Shown here one piece after another: positions 3,736 to 19,400 of a stretch of 64,000 bases of DNA. Numbering within the stretch: the stretch's first letter is position 1; the number at the start of each line of letters is the position of its first letter. The position numbers were made by a program, and so were the translations under genes. The stretch comes from Tubulanus polymorphus (Eukaryota; Animalia; Nemertea). The DNA lies in NCBI RefSeq assembly GCF_964204645.1, contig NC_134025.1:28438299-28502298 (forward strand). The letters run 5' to 3'. Under the pieces are notes generated by a model. The model saw only the letters and a program-made list of their open reading frames with translations. It was not told the origin of the DNA and did no database searches.

Positions 3736-5865
<2,130 letters not shown>

Positions 5866-9029: not shown

Positions 9030-9963
9030 CTACCTTTTGGCGTATTGCTGTATATAGTCTCTTACTTTAAGACGAAAAGAATCCTGAAAATGATAAAATC
9101 GGAGGAATATGAATCAAAATAGTAATTTAAGAGATCCACTGTAGCAGTAGAGATGCTTACTTTGTTATTTTTGTAGTGATCAGCAGCTTCTACATTTAGA
9201 GGGTCATCGAAATTGAGCAAATCCTAAAAATGAATACAAAATATCAAGCCTATCGCTATTGTGAGCAAGACAATGTGACGCAGAGGAAAGTATATTTTGA
9301 AGGAATGCAGGGAGGATTTTACCGTAAATAAAGAATTCAATCCCCAAACGACATCTTTCAGCTTTCTAGTTGGCGCCCAACCTGAAAACAACCGCAAATT
9401 ACATTCAGAATACGACAATACTAAAGCACTGACAACATGACAATAGTTGGTAAAATCAAATCAAACCTAAACTATCCAAAGAGTTTTCTCTGAGTAAACT
9501 GAGACAAACTTCACCATCTTCACTGATGTTTGGATGCCAAATTCGTGTTAAACACTTCACCTTTGGTGGCTAAAAAAAGAAGAAATGACCTGTAGACATA
9601 AGTATTGAGAAACAAAATGCTTTTCAGATAGATTCTTACCACAAAGTTATAATCTTCAGGAACATGAATGTCAAATATAAAGTATCCATTTGCCCAAAAT
9701 CCCTCATCAGGGCTGACAGTGAGAGTAAACATATACATCTTATCAGGATCGGCAAATTCAGGCATACATGTTTTTGGAAGTGTCTGCTCCATTTCCATTA
9801 CCTCTGAAAGAATAATGAAATTATCATTCAAAATTTGTTACTGACATAAAGACACAATGATATTTTGTGACAAACCTTTGGGTAAGAGTCGATCCCTGAC
9901 TGAAGGCCTCTTCTTCAAGCTCTCAGTAGATTTTTGTTTCCTCTTCTTTGATAAGTTAATCAT
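9030..9963 (-). CDS. UBE2F: NEDD8-conjugating enzyme UBE2F
   Basis: Spliced MINLSKK...[15 protein letters not shown]...[68 protein letters not shown]...YAKR*; catalytic Cys intact. Confidence 0.95.
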
Positions 9964-10611
9964 TGTAAAATCTGTCAATGGAACAATCTGAAAAATACAA
10001 ATACATAATTCAATAAGGAAGTAAATCCACCACAGAAAGAAATAATATTTAAAGATAGTACCAGCAGATTCTACAGTACACAAAAAGTCAATATGAATTT
10101 AGGCACAGTAACAGGATGATTAGTGCCCTAATTAGCTCAGATAAGGAAATCGAACATCAGAGCAGCTCTGCAGCACCAGTAAAAATAAACTAACTTTTTT
10201 GAATTGAATTGACTCATCTGGAAGAAAATCAGAACACAGTTTTTATGACGTTAGAATTGCAATCATAGGAATTGTATCATCGTACACTTACCTAGATACT
10301 TCTAAACGAATTGAAATATAGTGAAGATAGTAATTATTTAGCAGCAGTAACATCGAAATATCGCTTCAAACTCTCAAACTCAAAGTATTTCAAAGCGGAA
10401 ATAGCCAGATTTTCGATCGCTTAGGCTAACATCAATAATAAAGACAATTCCTATCAGTTTTCTATCATTTCGGTAACATCATCTTCCTTTTCGAGCATAA
10501 AAGCATTTTTCCTTTAAAATGTATGAATTAAGTTTGAAAAAGATTTGAAATCTTTTAAATTGAGGCTTTCGAATATTTTTTTATGCTGTATGCGATGGTG
10601 GAGTAAACAAT

Positions 10612-11990
10612 ATGGCGGCTGTTTTTGAGTGGCCGTGGCAATACAATTTTCCACCCTTTTTCACGTAATTAATTGTCTAGTTTTAACATCGGGCATGGAA
10701 TCTGGGACTACAGGGAGGTGTCGGATGCATTGTCTGTCATCCCAAAAACAATTCAATTCGGGCTGTACGCATGGTTTCTTGCGTTTGAAACGTTGTGACC
10801 AACAAACCCGGCAACCAACTAAAAACTACACAACACAAGGCATGCAATTGCAATGCCAATTTATTGAATGAAATGGCATCAAGAAAGTAGGGCGACGTGG
10901 GAAGCACTATGTTTTAAGTCTCTGAATTCTATTTTAGGGTGCAGCCAAACGCCGAGACGAGAAAAAAACAGATAGAAGCATGGTGTAACTTGATTCTCGA
11001 ATACTACAGAAAAAATAAACTATTTAATTTAGATGTAAAAGAATCACAGAACGATCCCATATTTTACAACAAAAAAATAGATCGTATCCTTTAATAGAAT
11101 TAAATACAGCAGGTGATTGAGATTATTGAGATGTGGTTACAAAAAATGAAAGTTCTTTCTTCATTTAGGAGTTTGTTACATATATGTACACTGCATTATG
11201 TACCGGTATAGTTGACCATCGTTTATACAATTCTGTTATGAAACTTGTTAATTACAATGATTTCCACGGCAGCATGTCCCAGCTAACATGTTATATCAAT
11301 CTACATTTGGTTAATACGAAACCTGTTAATACAACAATTTCACTTTTCCCACAAGATTCATATCAACAAGGTCCCAATATTTCTGTTAATCCTGTCAATA
11401 TGCTACATTCTTAACATAATGGCAGGCAAATTAAATTTAGACGCAATACAAGCTATTCTTGAAGAATTACAGAAAAAAGGTACTGAAATAATCCAATCTC
11501 TTTAGTTTTTCTTGCCAGCATACAAACAATGCATGAATTACAACTCTGAAAAATATTTTAGGAAATGTTGAATGGACGGATAAACGAAAAGAACAATGTC
11601 TAGTTATGTGGAGAAGTCCAGAAGAATGGGGAAAAATCATGTATCAATGGGTAATTAAAGTGATTCAAATATTCTATGACAGTTTTTAGGGTACGTTATG
11701 GAGAATATCTGTGTTTGGTATTATCATTTTGACAGGCTCAATCAAATGCAATGATGAATACAGTTTGTACATTTTATGAGTTAACACAAGGTGACGACAC
11801 AGTCAATCAAGGTAATTATAATTGATTCTTGTACTGACTTATTAATTTTAACTGCTGTATATTTATATCTTGTAATGGAATTCTAGAGTTTTATGGTATT
11901 GAAGATTGGCTGTTAATCAGGGCATTGAAAACGTTGGAAGAGCAAAGAAAAGCCGAAGTTATTGGAGATGAAGGCGTGAAATTCTTTTGA
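10612..11990 (+). CDS. VPS25: ESCRT-II subunit VPS25
   Basis: MAAVFEWPWQYNFPPFFT-QPNAETRKKQIEAWC...WRSPEEWGKIMYQW-MNTVCTFYELTQGDDT-EFYGIEDWLLIRALKTLEEQRKAEVIGDEGVKFF*. Confidence 0.95.
11084..11425 (+). other. U12-type (minor spliceosome) GT-AG intron in VPS25
   Basis: 5' splice site GTATCCTTT (11084-11092); branch site TTCTTAAC (11408-11415) lies 8 nt before the AG (11424-11425), with no polypyrimidine tract; the junction restores the frame (KIDRKL). Confidence 0.88.
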
Positions 11991-12329: not shown

Positions 12330-15300
12330 ATGAATATTTTGACATTTGTTGTAAACAAACAGTCCTTATGTATAAGCAATATCTCAGTGAAGTAAGATGC
12401 AATATTTTGAAATGATTTGTATTGATGAATCCATTTATTGAAAGAATTTATCCTTTGGTTGCCGTTTTTATTGAAACCCCACCACAATTTATTTCAGGTG
12501 AAACAGCAGATAAAAATAGAGGCTGCTGAGCCTGAGGAGGTCGAGGAAGGCACACCTATAATAGATGATACAAGTGATGAACTGTTTAATGATGATGAGA
12601 TAGATAAATGTTGGCAAATCATTTATGAACGAGATAGAATAGCATTAAAATGTGACAAATATGAAATATCGACTTCTAAAGGAGGCTGGAAACCGATACG
12701 ATTGTTTGTTTCATCTACATTTTCTGACTTTTTCAATGAAAGAGAAATTTTAGTTAAACGGGTGAGTGCCAGAAACAGATAGATACCGGGATCACAAGCA
12801 AAACTAGAATGCATCATTCTTTTGTAACAATTAAACATATGTCTAGGTATTTCCTGAACTGCAAGAATGGTTATATCAACGAAATCTTTATCTGGTTGAA
12901 TGCGATTTACGTTGGGGCATTCCTAAATTCACATCAACAGCTGAAACTATAGCGACATGCATGGAAGAGATAGATCGCTGTAAACAAGACAATGTACAGC
13001 CATTCTTTCTAAATATGACTGGTTATAGGTAAATATATACATTACTTCTAATACACGTATGAACTAACGTAGAACTTATCGATGTTTGTTATATTTCAAT
13101 TATAGGTATGGTTGGGTCCCTACGAAGGAAGATATATCAACAAATTTAAGAGAACAGTATCACTGGGTTGACGATGTTTCAATTACTTGTATGGAAATAC
13201 TTCATGGAGCGTTCTGGTTGAGGAATAGAAATGCTCTTTTCATGTTTAGAGATGTTTTAGGAAAAATACCTGCAGATCACGAAAGATATTTCTTTGAAAA
13301 AGATCCCTTAGCACGTAATCATGTCGAGGTATAATTGCAAAGATTGTTCAGTGTTTAGGCTCCAAGCTTCGTTTCAATATCATATTTAGATGTCTTTGTG
13401 AAATTGTAGTGTTTGAAACGCAAAATCATCGAAAGATTTCCAGAACAAGTGTTTAATTATGCATGCTCCGTAAAGGGAGTTGAAGAATTATCTGGCAGAA
13501 ATCGGGTATGAATTATGTGAAGTATGACCGAAATTATACATTTGAACATCTTTGAATATTCAGTTTTCACTGGCATTTCTGTATTGGTTATGTGTGGTTG
13601 TATTGTATTTTAAGGTTGTATTAACCGGGCTCGATGACTTCAGTAATATAGTGTTAAACTTCTTCAAAGAAACTATTAACCGAGAATACGGTGATCAATC
13701 ATCAGCCTTATCTTCTTATCAAACCCGTAAGTTGATCGAATTCTCAGTCGAATTTCTGTTATTCTATTAACCATAGTATATAACAATTTCGTTATCAATG
13801 TATTAAAGCTTATTCCTTAGGAGGATTTCTCATTTATTGCAAAATTATGACCACAGTATTTTATAGATTAGTTTTAAATTATATCTCCAGAATTATCATC
13901 CCACACACAATACATGCATCAGAAAGCTGAAATCTTTTATGGGCGAAAGACTGAACAGGATATTCTGAGAAAGTTTTTGCATGGCAAATGCACAATTGAG
14001 AACGAAAGTAAACCAAATGATGAAGTAGTTTTCAGAAAAGACATGGAATTATGGTACATGCCTGTTGATACTGTTAATCCTATTATGTATGTAATGGCTG
14101 CACCTGGGTATGGGAAGTCGACGTTACTAGCTGATACTGTTAAATTCATGGTATCTGAAGTAAGAACTACACAATTTCTCAATCAACATCAATTTCTCAT
14201 TATTCTATAGCGAAATAACCTAAAGCTTAATGTCAATTTCAGGAATGCAATAACTTATTCTACCACTTTTGTGGTCTTTCTGGTGATCCGTGTGTACTTC
14301 TAGCAAGATTGATTACTTTCCTCGATGTCATAAAAAGTAATGAAGGTAAGAATATTATTCATATCAAAACCTTCTCTGTTACCTTGAAAGCAAACTGTTT
14401 GTTTATCATTGATTATCTTGCAGATGAAAGCTGTACAAAATTTGATGACTATCTACGTCTGTCTGAAACTGATTTGGCTAAAATATTCAAACAATCTTTA
14501 TTAGAATGTTCAACAAAACCTATTTGTATAGTTATAGATGCTCTTAATGAGGTTTGTATTGAGTTTTCTTTCTCCTACTTTAAATGATTATGAATCTATT
14601 CATTTTGTATTTCTCAAATTTTAGTTGTTGACTAACCAATCACCAGATCATTTGTCATGGCTTCCTCCAGCATTTCCGTCCAATATTTACTGCATTGTTA
14701 GTTGCGTTGAAGATCATCTGCCCACTCTCAGTCGCCTCGGGGACCGTTTGACCAAACAACTGAAAATCGACCATTTGGGCAAAGATGCCAGTCGGATGTT
14801 TGTAGAAAACTTTTTTCACAACTACTCAAAGGTACCAGTAGTTTAAAGACTGGCCGTACTAGCGTTGAATTCGACCAGGAATTTCTGTCAAGGGTACAAA
14901 CTTTTATGCTTTCAGAAATTAGATGGAGAACAATTGACTCTGCTGATGGAGAAAGCTGAATGGGTATCACCTCTGTGGTTACAAATAGCGTGTGAAGAGT
15001 TACGCACACTCGGAGATTATACACTAGTCACCGAAATCATTGAGAATTTAGACATCAATATGAAAGGTTTACTGTCTCAGATAATAACTCGTTTAGCCTG
15101 TGATGATCACACTCAGTCGCTTCAAAAGGTAATCAACATTGTTCAATAATTTCTTTTCTCATTCTGTATGCAAAAGTAACTTACTTTTATAACTATTTAC
15201 AGCTATTAGCAGTGATAGCTTGTTCTGAATATGGTATTTTGGAAACAGATGTCTGTCAATTGCTTGGAGATTTCAAACAAAACATTCCATTGCCTCCTTC

Positions 15301-16151
15301 ACATTGGGCACATTTACGCAGGGTTCTATCGAGTTTCATCAAAACGTATCCATTCAACCCTCCAGCGATAAACTTTGTTCACGGCACCGTGAAGAAGGTA
15401 TAATATGTACATTTTTGAGCCGAGTTTTATTCTAGGAATGAAGAATGCATTGGTATCTTTCAATTTCTTAAAGGCTGTTTTTGATATTTGCAACCTCCGT
15501 GATTTGAAAACCGTCCAGAACTGGCACGCATTATTCGCCGATTTCTATCAATTCCATTGTAAACACGAGATTGCCAATATTCTGCCAATACATCTTCTCA
15601 AAGCTGGATACACCAAAAGGTATAATACTTTCAGCATTTCATGCAACAGGATATCTCCGTTTTTACATCTATTCAAATGATTTTCTTCTAGATTGCTCAG
15701 CTTTATAGATGATACAAGAAACAAGATCAAGATACCAATCTTCAAGCAACGAATGTACAAAAATGTGAGTATACCTAAACGAAATAATGATTTAAGACCA
15801 ATTTCAGTTCATCTGGTATAATATATACACAATCCTTTGATCTTTTTACAGAAATTACGCTGTCAACAGGCAATTGTACCAAATATGACTAGTCCAGCCA
15901 TTATTTGCAATTTTTGTGGTTGTCACATCATTGGTGAAAACAACGAATGTTGTTTTTGTAATGTTCGGTATTCTCAACAGTCATTGGTTGCAGCTATGTT
16001 ATGTATGCAGCATCGTTCTCGTCATTCAAATAGGAATACGTGCTTCAAATGTGGTAAAATTACACTCGAAAAAATGATCAAATGTGAAGCTAAAATATGC
16101 ATATTTTGTAACACTGGTCTTAATAAATGTTGTAAACTTATTGTTCATTAA
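12330..16151 (+). CDS. DUF4062 (TEP1/NPHP3/NWD-type N-domain) + STAND/NACHT-like NTPase + C-terminal Cys-rich PHF5-like zinc knot
   Basis: IRLFVSSTFSDFFNEREIL, DLRWGI, CMEEIDRC, YRYGWVP (DUF4062); FYGR, Walker A AAPGYGKST, Walker B ICIVIDALNE, LSWLP, SPLWLQIACEELR. The last exon 15852-16151 splices in frame. The start (ATG 12330) is uncertain; firm coding begins at 12498. Confidence 0.82.
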
Positions 16152-16454
16152 ACTTGATCCATACTAAATCTAAAGCAGCAATCTATCCATGTCTCCATTT
16201 GTTATTCCTGTGCCATAATCTTCTCACAATTTACTCAACTAAGCTGTTTTTTTTGTGATTATGATAATAATGAATATGAATCAGTTTTATTTATGACAGT
16301 GGTTATATTGATTATACATTGTTCTTGTTATCTATGATACACTCATTTTATCTACAATTTAGCAATATAGATATGTTTAGGACATTTTATATCTTTTTGC
16401 AATATACATTTATTTACAAATGAATTTTTTTTTTTTAATTTAATTAATGGGATT

Positions 16455-19400
16455 TCACTCAATTTCCATTTCGTTACTAAAGCCTTCTTCAAGATCCCGA
16501 AGGACAAGACTCGTCAAATTCCCCAAGCTTGTAGTATCCATGATTTCTGTTACCACATTTGGTCCATTGCAATAACTGCTATTTCTGAAATTTCAAAATT
16601 GACTAGTAAAGTTACAGGCTATAACCAAGGCTGTAATTAGGAATGATTTCTTAAAGGAATGGTTACACGCTTACATCTGATAGGGAACTTGCTGTGAAAA
16701 CGGTACATCTACATTCACCAGATTCTGAATTGTGCAAAGTTGCGTGCTGACATCATCCGCTGATAGTTGTGGAATTGAAAATTCTCTAGCAGTAGTTTGA
16801 TGGGGATACGTCCCTGGTAGAGGCAAAGAACCGCCTGGTGAAGATGGAGCCGGACTAAGACACGAGAATTGCGTCGACGGCGTCAATGGAGCATCGGATA
16901 AACAGCTCGACATCGGTGAAATCGGACCAGACGAACCAGATCCTATACGCCTGTAATACCCACATACCGGTGTCATCGATATAGAATATAAACATAAACC
17001 ACCGGTCAAATAATGACATGTGATATGTGCTTACCGTCTGGCCTGCATTTTTTGTTCACGTCTCAGTGGCAAATATCCATCAAGATTCACTGCATCTAAA
17101 ATGAAATTGAACATGCACTCGTAAAAAATGTATAAACGTAAAAATCTAAATATGTCAGTTACAGAAACTAACCTTCTTCATCCATAAAATCAGCAAATGC
17201 TACGTTGATAGGTTCACGCGGGTACAAATACAGAAGTGGTTTATCCAATAATTCATCTTCGATTCCCATTCGCGTCAACATCAAACCAAAGCTTTGCTCT
17301 TTGCTCCTATTTGTTTCTTTGTCATATAATTCTTTGAGGAAAAATGGATTTCCGTGAGCGACTTCATTATCTGATAAACATACAAAAAAATACACATTGC
17401 TTTGTATTTTTACATCATTTTCTGCAATCGTTTAGCTAAAATAATCACATGTACGTTACCAAGAACAACAGCTACAGATAATGCTCCATAAGGCACAGAC
17501 TTTTTATTGATGTACGTTTCACTGAATCGAAGAAGAAATGTTCCATTCGGTTTACCACTCATCAATTCATTCGTTCTTTGTTTCGTTATGTAGCCAATAA
17601 TTTTACTGAAAAAGTAAAACACAGATCGTTAGGAATTTCTATAAATTCAATTTATGCAAATTCAATCTCGTTACACTTACTTGTCTCTCCAGACATTAGG
17701 CAAACATTTCGAAATGAAATTCAATGTGGCGTGGTACCATCGCCAGAATGTGAATGAGTTGTTTGGAGGAATCGTCTCTTCGTTGAATTTTTTCCATGTT
17801 ATCTCCGTGGTAGAGTCATCAACAGGGCCTACTACAAAATCAAATAGAATTTCTTCGACAATTAAGAAAAAAATATAATATGTTAATTTCACTTGGAACT
17901 ATTCGTACCTATTAACTTCTCTTTGAAGAACTCAATATTCTCTTGAGTTAGTATGCGTCTAGTTTGCTTGAAACATTCAACTTTCAACAGATTTATAAAG
18001 TCTTTCCAGCTCACCCTTCTCACAGTACTCTCTGGCAGTTGATTCTTAAAATATGTAAAGAATGATTTTTCGTTTTTTTTGCTCTCAGTTTGAAGAGAAA
18101 CAAGCATCAAGTTGCAACAATGCATCAAAAGCTTACCAGCTCACGGAAGGCATTATCCCAAATAATAGTTGCCATACAGTTACATTCCTGCGATGTGTGA
18201 GACGTTCTTGCAACTATAGACAATGATTTTATCTGCAAAAGGTCCCAATTGCAAAATTGTTAACTTTCGGATAATTCACATCTATCGAATATATGATGAA
18301 GTCATTCTAAATATCATTTGTCTGGTGTAAATACATGTGTGAACATGTACAAAGATTGATTGGTGATAATGAATGAAGCTTGATTTTTCTAGAATGATGA
18401 AGCTGCGCAGTAGTATCATCAGAAGCAAAAAGCCCAGCATCTAATCTGAAATTTCACTTTCTACAAAATGCCTTTTAAATAATGAATCTTATAACGCTGA
18501 ACAGTCTCTTTGTGCAATCGAATAAATCTTGGTTATACTTTCAAAGCCATAGCGGAATGCTCAGTAAAAATCATTCTCAAACCTGTATTGGAATTGTTAA
18601 TTGGTTGTTAATTGGACTTAAGTAGTATGGACAATTTCCCACCTCCATATTAGGCACTTTCAAAGGTTCTTTCAACGCCGGAAACTTGATTGAAGCCGTT
18701 GTTTTGAAGGACATGTAATATTTCTGTTCAGCAACTTTCACATCACAAGGTAATGTCTTGAAATCTTTGACGATAAGTTTATTGAATCTGGCTGTCACAA
18801 TTCCATTCGACTGAACAAACTTTGCGCTGTTATTTTTGATGGAATTATTTGATTCGCCTGCAGCATTAAAAAAGGTCGCTTCAACTGCCTCATATAAAAC
18901 TGATGGACATTTAAACGAAGGCAACAGACACCTGCAAAACAAGATGAAAACATTTCTTGTAAGCTACTGAACTTCAAAGAATTATGAAATGAAAAATGTT
19001 GCCAATTTCAATAATCCACACCTCAGAATCACCGCAAAGTCTTTTGACTCTTTGTCTTTCAGTTTCATTAATTGTGGTGGTTGCATTTCAATAATGATGG
19101 AACTGAAATAGAATAAATTTATGAAAAAATAACTTGATAATTGAAAGATGATGATTTCCCGCAAGAATACTGTTTGTCTGTGTAAAGAATATAAGGTGAT
19201 GAAGTCAGTAACAACATTATCAAATTTGTACATACTCTCGAACTAATGTCTTCATTTTTTCCAGCAATGATGTATAGTATTTATTCATAATGACGTTCAA
19301 TTCTTGTTTACTCTTAACCTTCAAGATCAAAGGCACCGCTTTGATAGTCAGTGCCATGCACTCCTCACATAACAGAAAAAATTCACAAAACCTGAAAAAA

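Follow-up and report, generated by a model that had tools for sequence, protein, structure and literature searches.

What kind of domain closes a STAND NTPase of the nemertean Tubulanus polymorphus, and what could it do there? The question arises from a gene in a 64,000-nt stretch of the genome (contig NC_134025.1, positions 28,438,299 to 28,502,298, forward strand; the whole stretch is called the window below). The gene (window positions 12368..16151, + strand) has 15 exons and encodes a protein of 844 amino acids (aa), P0001, in the order DUF4062, STAND NTPase, helical domains and zinc knot. A preliminary description of the window had compared the knot with the SF3b subunit PHF5A/Rds3 and had regarded the architecture as undescribed. 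Our literature search, which covered mostly the open literature and did not cover the auxiliary-domain list in Figure S1D-E of the DUF4062 preprint cited below, likewise found no paper describing a DUF4062-STAND-PHF5-like architecture. What is new here is a PHF5A-type fold that is predicted outside the spliceosome and is joined to a DUF4062-STAND core.

Zinc module of the last exon and its predicted fold

The zinc module corresponds to the last exon (15852..16151, + strand; residues 746-844). Its 12 ligands (C749; C764/C767; C778/C781; C796/H799; C809/C812; C828/C831; C838) are spaced 14/10/14/9/15/6, as had been read from the sequence; the family median is 16/17/15/10/17/8. P0001 ends 6 residues past the last Cys. 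When the 99-aa tail was shuffled, 4 of 100,000 shuffles reproduced the 12-ligand order. The pattern (C, five CxxC, C, with one CxxC being CxxH) was invariant in 58/58 aligned homologues; these rows were selected for carrying the module, so the invariance describes a fixed pattern and not a frequency of loss. PHF5A and Rds3 use the same order with Cys at every position (PMC7614390, PMC5458519). The proposed likeness to PHF5A/Rds3 holds for the order of ligands; ligand 7 is His, not Cys, in 58/58 rows.

A structural model of the module was built from a 72-row alignment of eukaryote-type tails, from which PHF5A and the bacterial repeats described below were left out. The model had a predicted local distance difference test score (pLDDT) of 88.8 and a predicted template modelling score (pTM) of 0.79; single-sequence AlphaFold of the last exon gave low confidence (pLDDT 43). 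Foldseek ranked PHF5A/Rds3-sized chains of SF3b/spliceosome entries at positions 1-13 (prob 0.72-0.97, TM score 0.48-0.58, E 0.07-0.5; 13-18% identity to the module), and prob was ≤0.08 from rank 14 on. VIA-align returned 2 of 48,161 solved chains with Z of 2 or more, both matched over residues 1-99: human PHF5A (5zya_D; Z 7.1, root-mean-square deviation 3.0, 80 residues aligned) and yeast Rds3 (5gm6_J; Z 6.6, deviation 3.2, 80 aligned). LIM and RING, which had been named as the folds that would speak against a PHF5A-like knot, had Foldseek prob ≤0.08 and were absent from the VIA-align list; both results apply to FYVE and PHD as well. The predicted model therefore singles out PHF5A/Rds3, as the preliminary description had suggested.

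In PHF5A, CxxC 1 pairs with 4, 2 pairs with 5, and 3 joins both single Cys, according to the accessible text of the crystal paper (PMC5458519). If this pairing holds in the module, the third zinc site is predicted to be C749/C796/H799/C838, a Cys3His site. A trefoil knot of the backbone would follow from the end-to-end sequential match of the model to PHF5A.

Several results weigh against this assignment. All of the best Foldseek matches lie above E 0.001, and by VIA-align's own note a Z of 7 is middling. The module profiles A1 and A3 retrieved no PHF5A or Rds3 from PDB at E up to 10; their best rows were chance zinc proteins (E 0.08-0.3), and a single-sequence PDB search with the module gave nothing useful. 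The Tubulanus module matched no Pfam family and did not reach the PHF5 gathering score (26.7 bits). PHF5 was nevertheless the most frequent family among the tails: 8/40 matched it weakly (E up to 1; best 8.3e-4), with family tails scoring 17.5-18.3 bits. In the ESM Atlas, two family members had no usable feature match, and the structures nearest to the model given by the Atlas had TM <0.4 and included no PHF5.

Bacterial three-fold repeat proteins

Searched against 1.84 billion proteins, a profile of 40 tails matched 124; it also retrieved small proteins composed of three near-identical CxxC-CxxC units. The Pfam PHF5 cut-off was passed by 6/7 of the bacterial repeat proteins tested. When a profile of the bacterial repeats was searched against PDB, the top 8 rows were PHF5A and Rds3 (best E 2.5e-4), and comparison of the module family with the bacterial repeat family gave HH 98% (E 1.8e-13). 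As a control, the 12 ligands were fixed and the other residues were shuffled. More than nine-tenths of the real modules (54/58) exceeded the 95th percentile of the 580 controls (median 18.6 vs -2.0 bits), and the Tubulanus module (15.8 bits) scored above their maximum (14.2 bits). Because ligand-fixed shuffles lose the signal, the likeness of the module to the bacterial repeats is more than cysteine spacing.

These results bear on the possibility that cysteine spacing and prediction bias have produced a spurious likeness to PHF5A in an unrelated zinc cluster. The Foldseek E values of 0.07-0.5, the lack of a direct profile match to PHF5A in PDB and the Atlas model without a PHF5 neighbour are what such an artefact would give. 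Against it stand the loss of signal in the ligand-fixed shuffles, the agreement of two structural aligners on PHF5A/Rds3 and nothing else, and a sequence chain from module to bacterial repeats to PHF5A that is independent of the model. We consider an artefact highly improbable, and the module very probably has the three-zinc PHF5A fold predicted by the model.

The family of bacterial repeats includes the proteins P0190, P0207, P0220, P0227 and P0231. A scan of species genomes gave 62 repeat loci (L001-L062, near 4001-4350) in Myxococcales/Polyangia, Bacteroidia, Planctomycetes, Lentisphaerae, Elusimicrobia and one Micrarchaeota bin. A signal-like hydrophobic stretch was present in 48/56 parsed frames, 24 of them with a twin-arginine motif. 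The repeat occurs in two cuts: 4 are cut like PHF5A, and most are cut at another point. In the neighbourhoods of the 62 loci no shared neighbour was seen beyond groups of 5 similar loci and one mixed cluster of 11, and no family name was found for these proteins. By sequence, the module is closer to the bacterial repeats than to PHF5A; it is a cousin of PHF5A and not a copy. The PHF5A knot may go back to the symmetric form seen in the bacterial triple repeat.

The middle unit of 26/49 three-unit bacterial proteins has a His at the place of the invariant His of the STAND module. This His is central to a reading of the knot as a switch that responds to metal or redox state, its Cys3His site losing zinc on oxidation or metal stress and so freeing the NTPase. 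An invariant His at ligand 7 would make one site Cys3His; beyond the zinc ligands only a few glycines of the module are conserved, not a surface; and one zinc site among the three in Rds3 exchanges faster, as stated in the available text of PMC7614390. The bacterial His, however, suggests that the residue may be inherited, and we regard a redox switch as improbable.

Gene structure and transcript

The translation of the 15 spliced exons is identical, residue for residue, to database protein P0001. The exons lie on the + strand at 12368-12391, 12498-12761, 12847-13028, 13106-13328, 13410-13505, 13615-13726, 13891-14159, 14243-14345, 14424-14551, 14625-14831, 14916-15128, 15203-15397, 15474-15619, 15692-15764 and 15852-16151. 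All introns are GT..AG and 72-164 nt long. The start had been placed at 12330; it is the ATG at 12368, from which the exons rebuild P0001 exactly. The unspliced frame of the ATG at 12330 stops at its 22nd codon. A start of the form M[YF][KRMQA], as from ATG 12368, was found in 29/58 aligned homologues.

The last intron (15765-15851) is GT..AG and in phase 0, in agreement with the proposed in-frame junction. It is one of 13/14 introns spliced out in a single 3946-nt contig of sequencing run X2, which is not recorded as RNA and was taken as RNA because its contigs lack introns. This contig begins at 12561, so that the first intron (12392-12497) is outside its cover; run X4 gave only short, unlike pieces for the gene. 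Because the X2 contig skips intron 15765-15851 and contains the 15764/15852 junction, the last exon lies on the NTPase transcript, as the preliminary description had assumed.

The same contig continues past the last exon (window 15852-16949) into the 3' exons of a convergent STAT gene, which has SH2, STAT_linker and STAT_bind matches at 17410-18963 on the minus strand. It probably merges two transcripts with overlapping 3' ends, one from the zinc-module gene and one from the STAT gene. The 15764/15852 junction belongs to the zinc-module gene despite the merger, since it is GT..AG on the + strand.

DUF4062 domain and probable NAD hydrolysis

The DUF4062 domain is TIR-like and is a likely NAD hydrolase (NADase) by sequence (residues 71-280; exons 2-6, 12684..13665, + strand). 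Pfam PF13271 matched residues 76-170 of P0001 with 34.1 bits (cut-off 24.7), and crystal chain 11GZ_A, the TIR-like domain of TEP1, aligned with residues 71-280 (E=7.8e-17). The register was set by the TEP1 construct 895-1113 and by the active-site arginines R908, R954 and R976. In this alignment catalytic E1008 of TEP1 falls on E187 (codon 13194..13196, + strand), R976 on R157, R908 on S84 and R954 on E129. Glu occupies the E187 column in 54/55 covering rows of the 58-row family alignment, and Arg occupies the R157 column in 53/54. The TIR-like domain is the best-conserved part of the family, with a mean of 49% identity to the query vs 24-31% elsewhere.

As reported in the accessible part of bioRxiv 10.64898/2026.05.01.722283, DUF4062 acts as a TIR-like NADase both in bacteria and in TEP1, and the TEP1 activity requires E1008 and increases with concentration. 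The earlier suggestion that DUF4062 might hydrolyse NAD is backed by that work, together with the alignment of its catalytic Glu with E187. Two sets of observations argue the other way. The column of TEP1 R908, loss of which lowers activity in the same preprint, has Arg in 1/51 covering rows, and the R954 column has Arg in none. Moreover, that source describes only 1/4 full-length human DUF4062 proteins as active; NWD1, NWD2 and NPHP3 were inactive as purified. On balance, we judge from the alignment that the Tubulanus domain is rather likely to be an active NADase.

STAND NTPase and helical region

The STAND P-loop NTPase domain spans 13891..14831 (+ strand). Its Walker A motif AAPGYGKST (14097-14123) and Walker B motif IVIDALNE (from 14528) were found where they had been placed. 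In Pfam, NPHP3_N matched residues 361-472 (33.2 bits, cut-off 24.8), and the NACHT match was below its cut-off (20.0 bits; cut-off 26.7). Both K376 of Walker A and D463 of Walker B are kept in 54/58 rows. TROVE, vWA and WD40 were not found in P0001 (Pfam, E up to 1).

The helical region after the NTPase (14916..15764, + strand) has invariant K536, W557, L565 and G569 in the 58-row alignment. By analogy with STAND architecture, from which we take the names, it would comprise the helical and winged-helix domains of STAND proteins. The last helix of the region continues into the first zinc ligand.

Distribution and descent

A search for full-length homologues gave 786 matches among 7996 scored candidates. 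Among the 120 matches listed, 45 end in a complete 12-ligand module; the rest either carry TPR or WD40 repeats at the end or are short models. When the module or residues 560-844 served as query, word-based searches for homologues returned P0001 only. Of the 113 new proteins found with the tail profile, 63 show all 12 ligands in order, the seventh being His. The Capitella NTPase and module, which belong to two models with neighbouring numbers on a contig of the same length, look like parts of a single split gene, and the Helobdella model stops after the fourth CxxC.

Species names were looked up for 29/113 new tail-profile proteins. Across the searches, carriers with a name comprise the choanoflagellates Monosiga, Choanoeca and Helgoeca, Trichoplax and cnidarians; nemerteans, molluscs, Capitella, Seison, Priapulus, echinoderms and a hemichordate; and, among chordates, amphioxus, lamprey, bichirs, lungfish, a frog genus and a newt. 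Amniotes, teleosts, arthropods and nematodes were not among the names, which does not imply absence from these groups. A search for the DUF4062+NTPase+PHF5-like architecture across metazoans had been proposed, and the architecture was found from choanoflagellates to amphibians.

A first quick tree had long branches and support of 54 for the knot clade. A careful tree of the DUF4062+NTPase part was built from 35 rows, with the knot columns removed and metagenomic rows as outgroup; it omits 23/58 rows of the quick tree, including Seison, P0230 and Helobdella. Here the 19 knot proteins group together in a single clade (95/87); support is 99/96 for its animals and 99/98 for its choanoflagellates, and Tubulanus pairs with Lineus. 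TPR-ended DUF4062-STAND paralogues adjoin the knot clade. The sequences fit a single origin of the knot architecture before animals, followed by vertical descent. In the nearest paralogues TPR repeats occupy the knot's place, so a repeat domain was replaced by the knot.

Some side observations concern individual family members. The module is N-terminal in P0226 (501 aa, ENA contigs, 6 members) and is followed by ankyrin repeats and a UBA-like domain; P0226 is possibly a third setting for the fold. P0223 of Choanoeca flexa has a PH domain, likely an N-terminal membrane anchor. An MG start, resembling a myristoylation site, occurs in 15/58 family rows and in 16/21 TPR-ended paralogues. MG/MGC starts, likewise likely anchors, are found in cnidarian, placozoan and deuterostome members; in lophotrochozoans, including Tubulanus, starts of the M[YF][KR] type replace them. 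The four rows without the Walker A Lys (P0223, P0214, P0079 and P0203) still keep the catalytic Glu and the zinc ligands.

Proposed mechanism

In STAND proteins such as APAF-1 and the NLRs, the C-terminal domain keeps the NTPase closed until a ligand releases it and an oligomer forms. We propose a zinc-knot-gated STAND NADase, drawing on STAND biology and on the model in the accessible part of bioRxiv 10.64898/2026.05.01.722283. In the resting state the knot would keep the NTPase shut. A ligand, likely a polyanion (for instance RNA) or else a protein, would bind the knot and permit nucleotide exchange and oligomer formation. The oligomer would cluster the TIR-like domains, which would then cut NAD+, giving ADP-ribose plus nicotinamide, and this cutting would be the defence or cell-death output. 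The effector-STAND-sensor layout read from the window beforehand agrees with the confirmed domain order, the role of sensor being suggested by position.

All 58 modules are basic (net charge K+R-D-E of +4 to +13, median +8). Because of this charge, and because PHF5A contacts the RNA backbone in the accessible text of PMC5458519, nucleic acid is a weak first guess for the ligand. By analogy with other STAND proteins, it seems fairly probable that the knot acts as the switch of the receptor. The complete scheme, with the knot as likely sensor and brake, has about an even chance of being right, and an immune role of the protein is equally a matter of balance.

Other family features weigh against such a receptor. 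The module is poorly conserved outside its ligands (25% identity to the query), with no sign of a fixed ligand pocket. Walker A has no Lys in any of the 3 choanoflagellate rows or in the Seison row (P0223, P0214, P0079, P0203). Most named species appear to have a single copy and the tree resembles a species tree, whereas immune NLR families are expanded. No paralogue of the gene lies within the 64-kb window. Much of this would suit a non-immune, single-copy membrane or ciliary signalling protein or scaffold like NWD1 or NPHP3, with the knot as structural cap or docking module and DUF4062 as a weak or regulated enzyme. The copy number and tree, the degenerate choanoflagellate P-loop, the drifting knot surface, the MG starts (15/58 family rows and 16/21 TPR-ended paralogues) and the PH domain of the choanoflagellate member all favour such a protein. 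So does the inactivity in vitro of NWD1, NWD2 and NPHP3, as given in the available text of the DUF4062 preprint (bioRxiv 10.64898/2026.05.01.722283). On the other side, conservation is highest in the TIR-like domain (49% vs 24-31%), which also keeps its Glu in 54/55 rows; this argues for catalysis. The Tubulanus protein, moreover, has no MG start. We hold the scaffold to be a serious but rather unlikely alternative to the knot-gated NADase.

The broadest implication is speculative. A three-fold zinc repeat of bacteria would be the ancestor of the PHF5A/Rds3 knot; one descendant copy would have entered SF3b, and a second would serve an ancient NLR-like NADase as its nucleic-acid sensor. This receptor would constitute an overlooked NAD-depleting defence pathway, found from choanoflagellates to amphibians. 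We think this whole chain doubtful, and its parts matter separately. The PHF5A fold is now predicted in two further settings, the sensor slot of an animal STAND protein and bacterial triple repeats. With the repeats as a possible symmetric precursor, the origin of the knotted spliceosomal fold becomes testable. DUF4062-STAND NADases have only just been recognised, according to the accessible text of bioRxiv 10.64898/2026.05.01.722283. As a system for tests, an 844-aa protein whose candidate sensor has 99 aa is much simpler than TEP1, and orthologues are named in amphioxus, lamprey, bichir, lungfish and amphibians.

Neighbouring genes

Two genes lie upstream in the window. The gene at 9520-10100 (- strand) is of the ubiquitin-conjugating type (UQ_con, E 6.5e-5), and we take it to resemble UBE2F. 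The gene at 11420-11990 (+ strand) is a short spliced gene whose introns were seen; it presumably resembles ESCRT-II VPS25, although no family match was obtained.

Comparison with known systems

PHF5A/Rds3 (PF03660) shares with the module the 12-ligand order of C, five CxxC and C (given in the accessible text of PMC5458519) and the predicted fold over the whole domain. The crystal paper names Rds3 as the only other protein with the fold in the text available to us (PMC5458519). Unlike PHF5A, a stand-alone SF3b subunit, the Tubulanus module is fused to a STAND NTPase; it has His at ligand 7 and longer first loops, and it lacks the basic, RNA-contacting C-terminal helix. The position of PHF5A Y36 is Arg in Tubulanus and Tyr in 4/58 module rows. 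PHF5A is highly conserved, whereas identity to the query within the module family is ~25%. The module is thus not a PHF5A family member in the strict sense.

This comparison also bears on the integrated decoy suggested in the preliminary description, here taken as a mimic of PHF5A that would capture pathogen factors or small molecules directed against SF3b. The predicted fold is that of PHF5A, Pfam PHF5 is the family matched by most tails (8/40, best 8.3e-4), and natural splicing inhibitors have a target site in PHF5A, as described in the accessible part of PMC5458519. A decoy would be expected to track the conserved PHF5A; the module drifts freely, with 13-18% identity to PHF5A/Rds3, no basic C-terminal helix and the Y36 Tyr mostly gone, and its likeness to the bacterial repeats is stronger (HH 98%). 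A decoy is therefore very unlikely. The same points, with the His at ligand 7, give no support to a direct spliceosomal origin, and the module has stayed within one vertical lineage since the choanoflagellate-animal split. The bacterial repeat proteins have the same ligand set as the module; unlike it, they are stand-alone, near-perfect triple repeats, mostly with a signal-like leader.

TEP1, NWD1, NWD2 and NPHP3 resemble the Tubulanus protein in having DUF4062 beside a STAND NTPase and a helical domain. The catalytic Glu and the R976 equivalent of TEP1 are kept in Tubulanus, whereas R908 and R954 are not. The Tubulanus protein also differs from TEP1 in its length of 844 aa, in lacking TROVE, vWA and WD40, and in having a 99-aa zinc module at the sensor place. 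Its database name, 'telomerase protein component 1-like [Tubulanus polymorphus]', is therefore misleading: it reflects the shared core only, and the protein is not a TEP1 orthologue. The TPR-ended DUF4062-STAND proteins ('DDB_G0287407-like') are the closest paralogues in the tree, often from the same species (Glandiceps, Sinanodonta, Amphiura), but have TPR repeats in the knot's place and mostly an MGC start.

The anti-phage DUF4062 systems Swarozyc and Evangelion share the effector-sensor logic, a C-terminal auxiliary sensor triggering NAD+ loss, as outlined in the accessible text of bioRxiv 10.64898/2026.05.01.722283 and 10.64898/2026.06.25.731849. They differ in being bacterial and in having no STAND NTPase between effector and sensor, and the accessible text mentions no zinc module. 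With immune NLR-like receptors the Tubulanus protein shares the effector-STAND-sensor domain order, the sensor role being suggested by position, and it would work like an NLR-type NADase.

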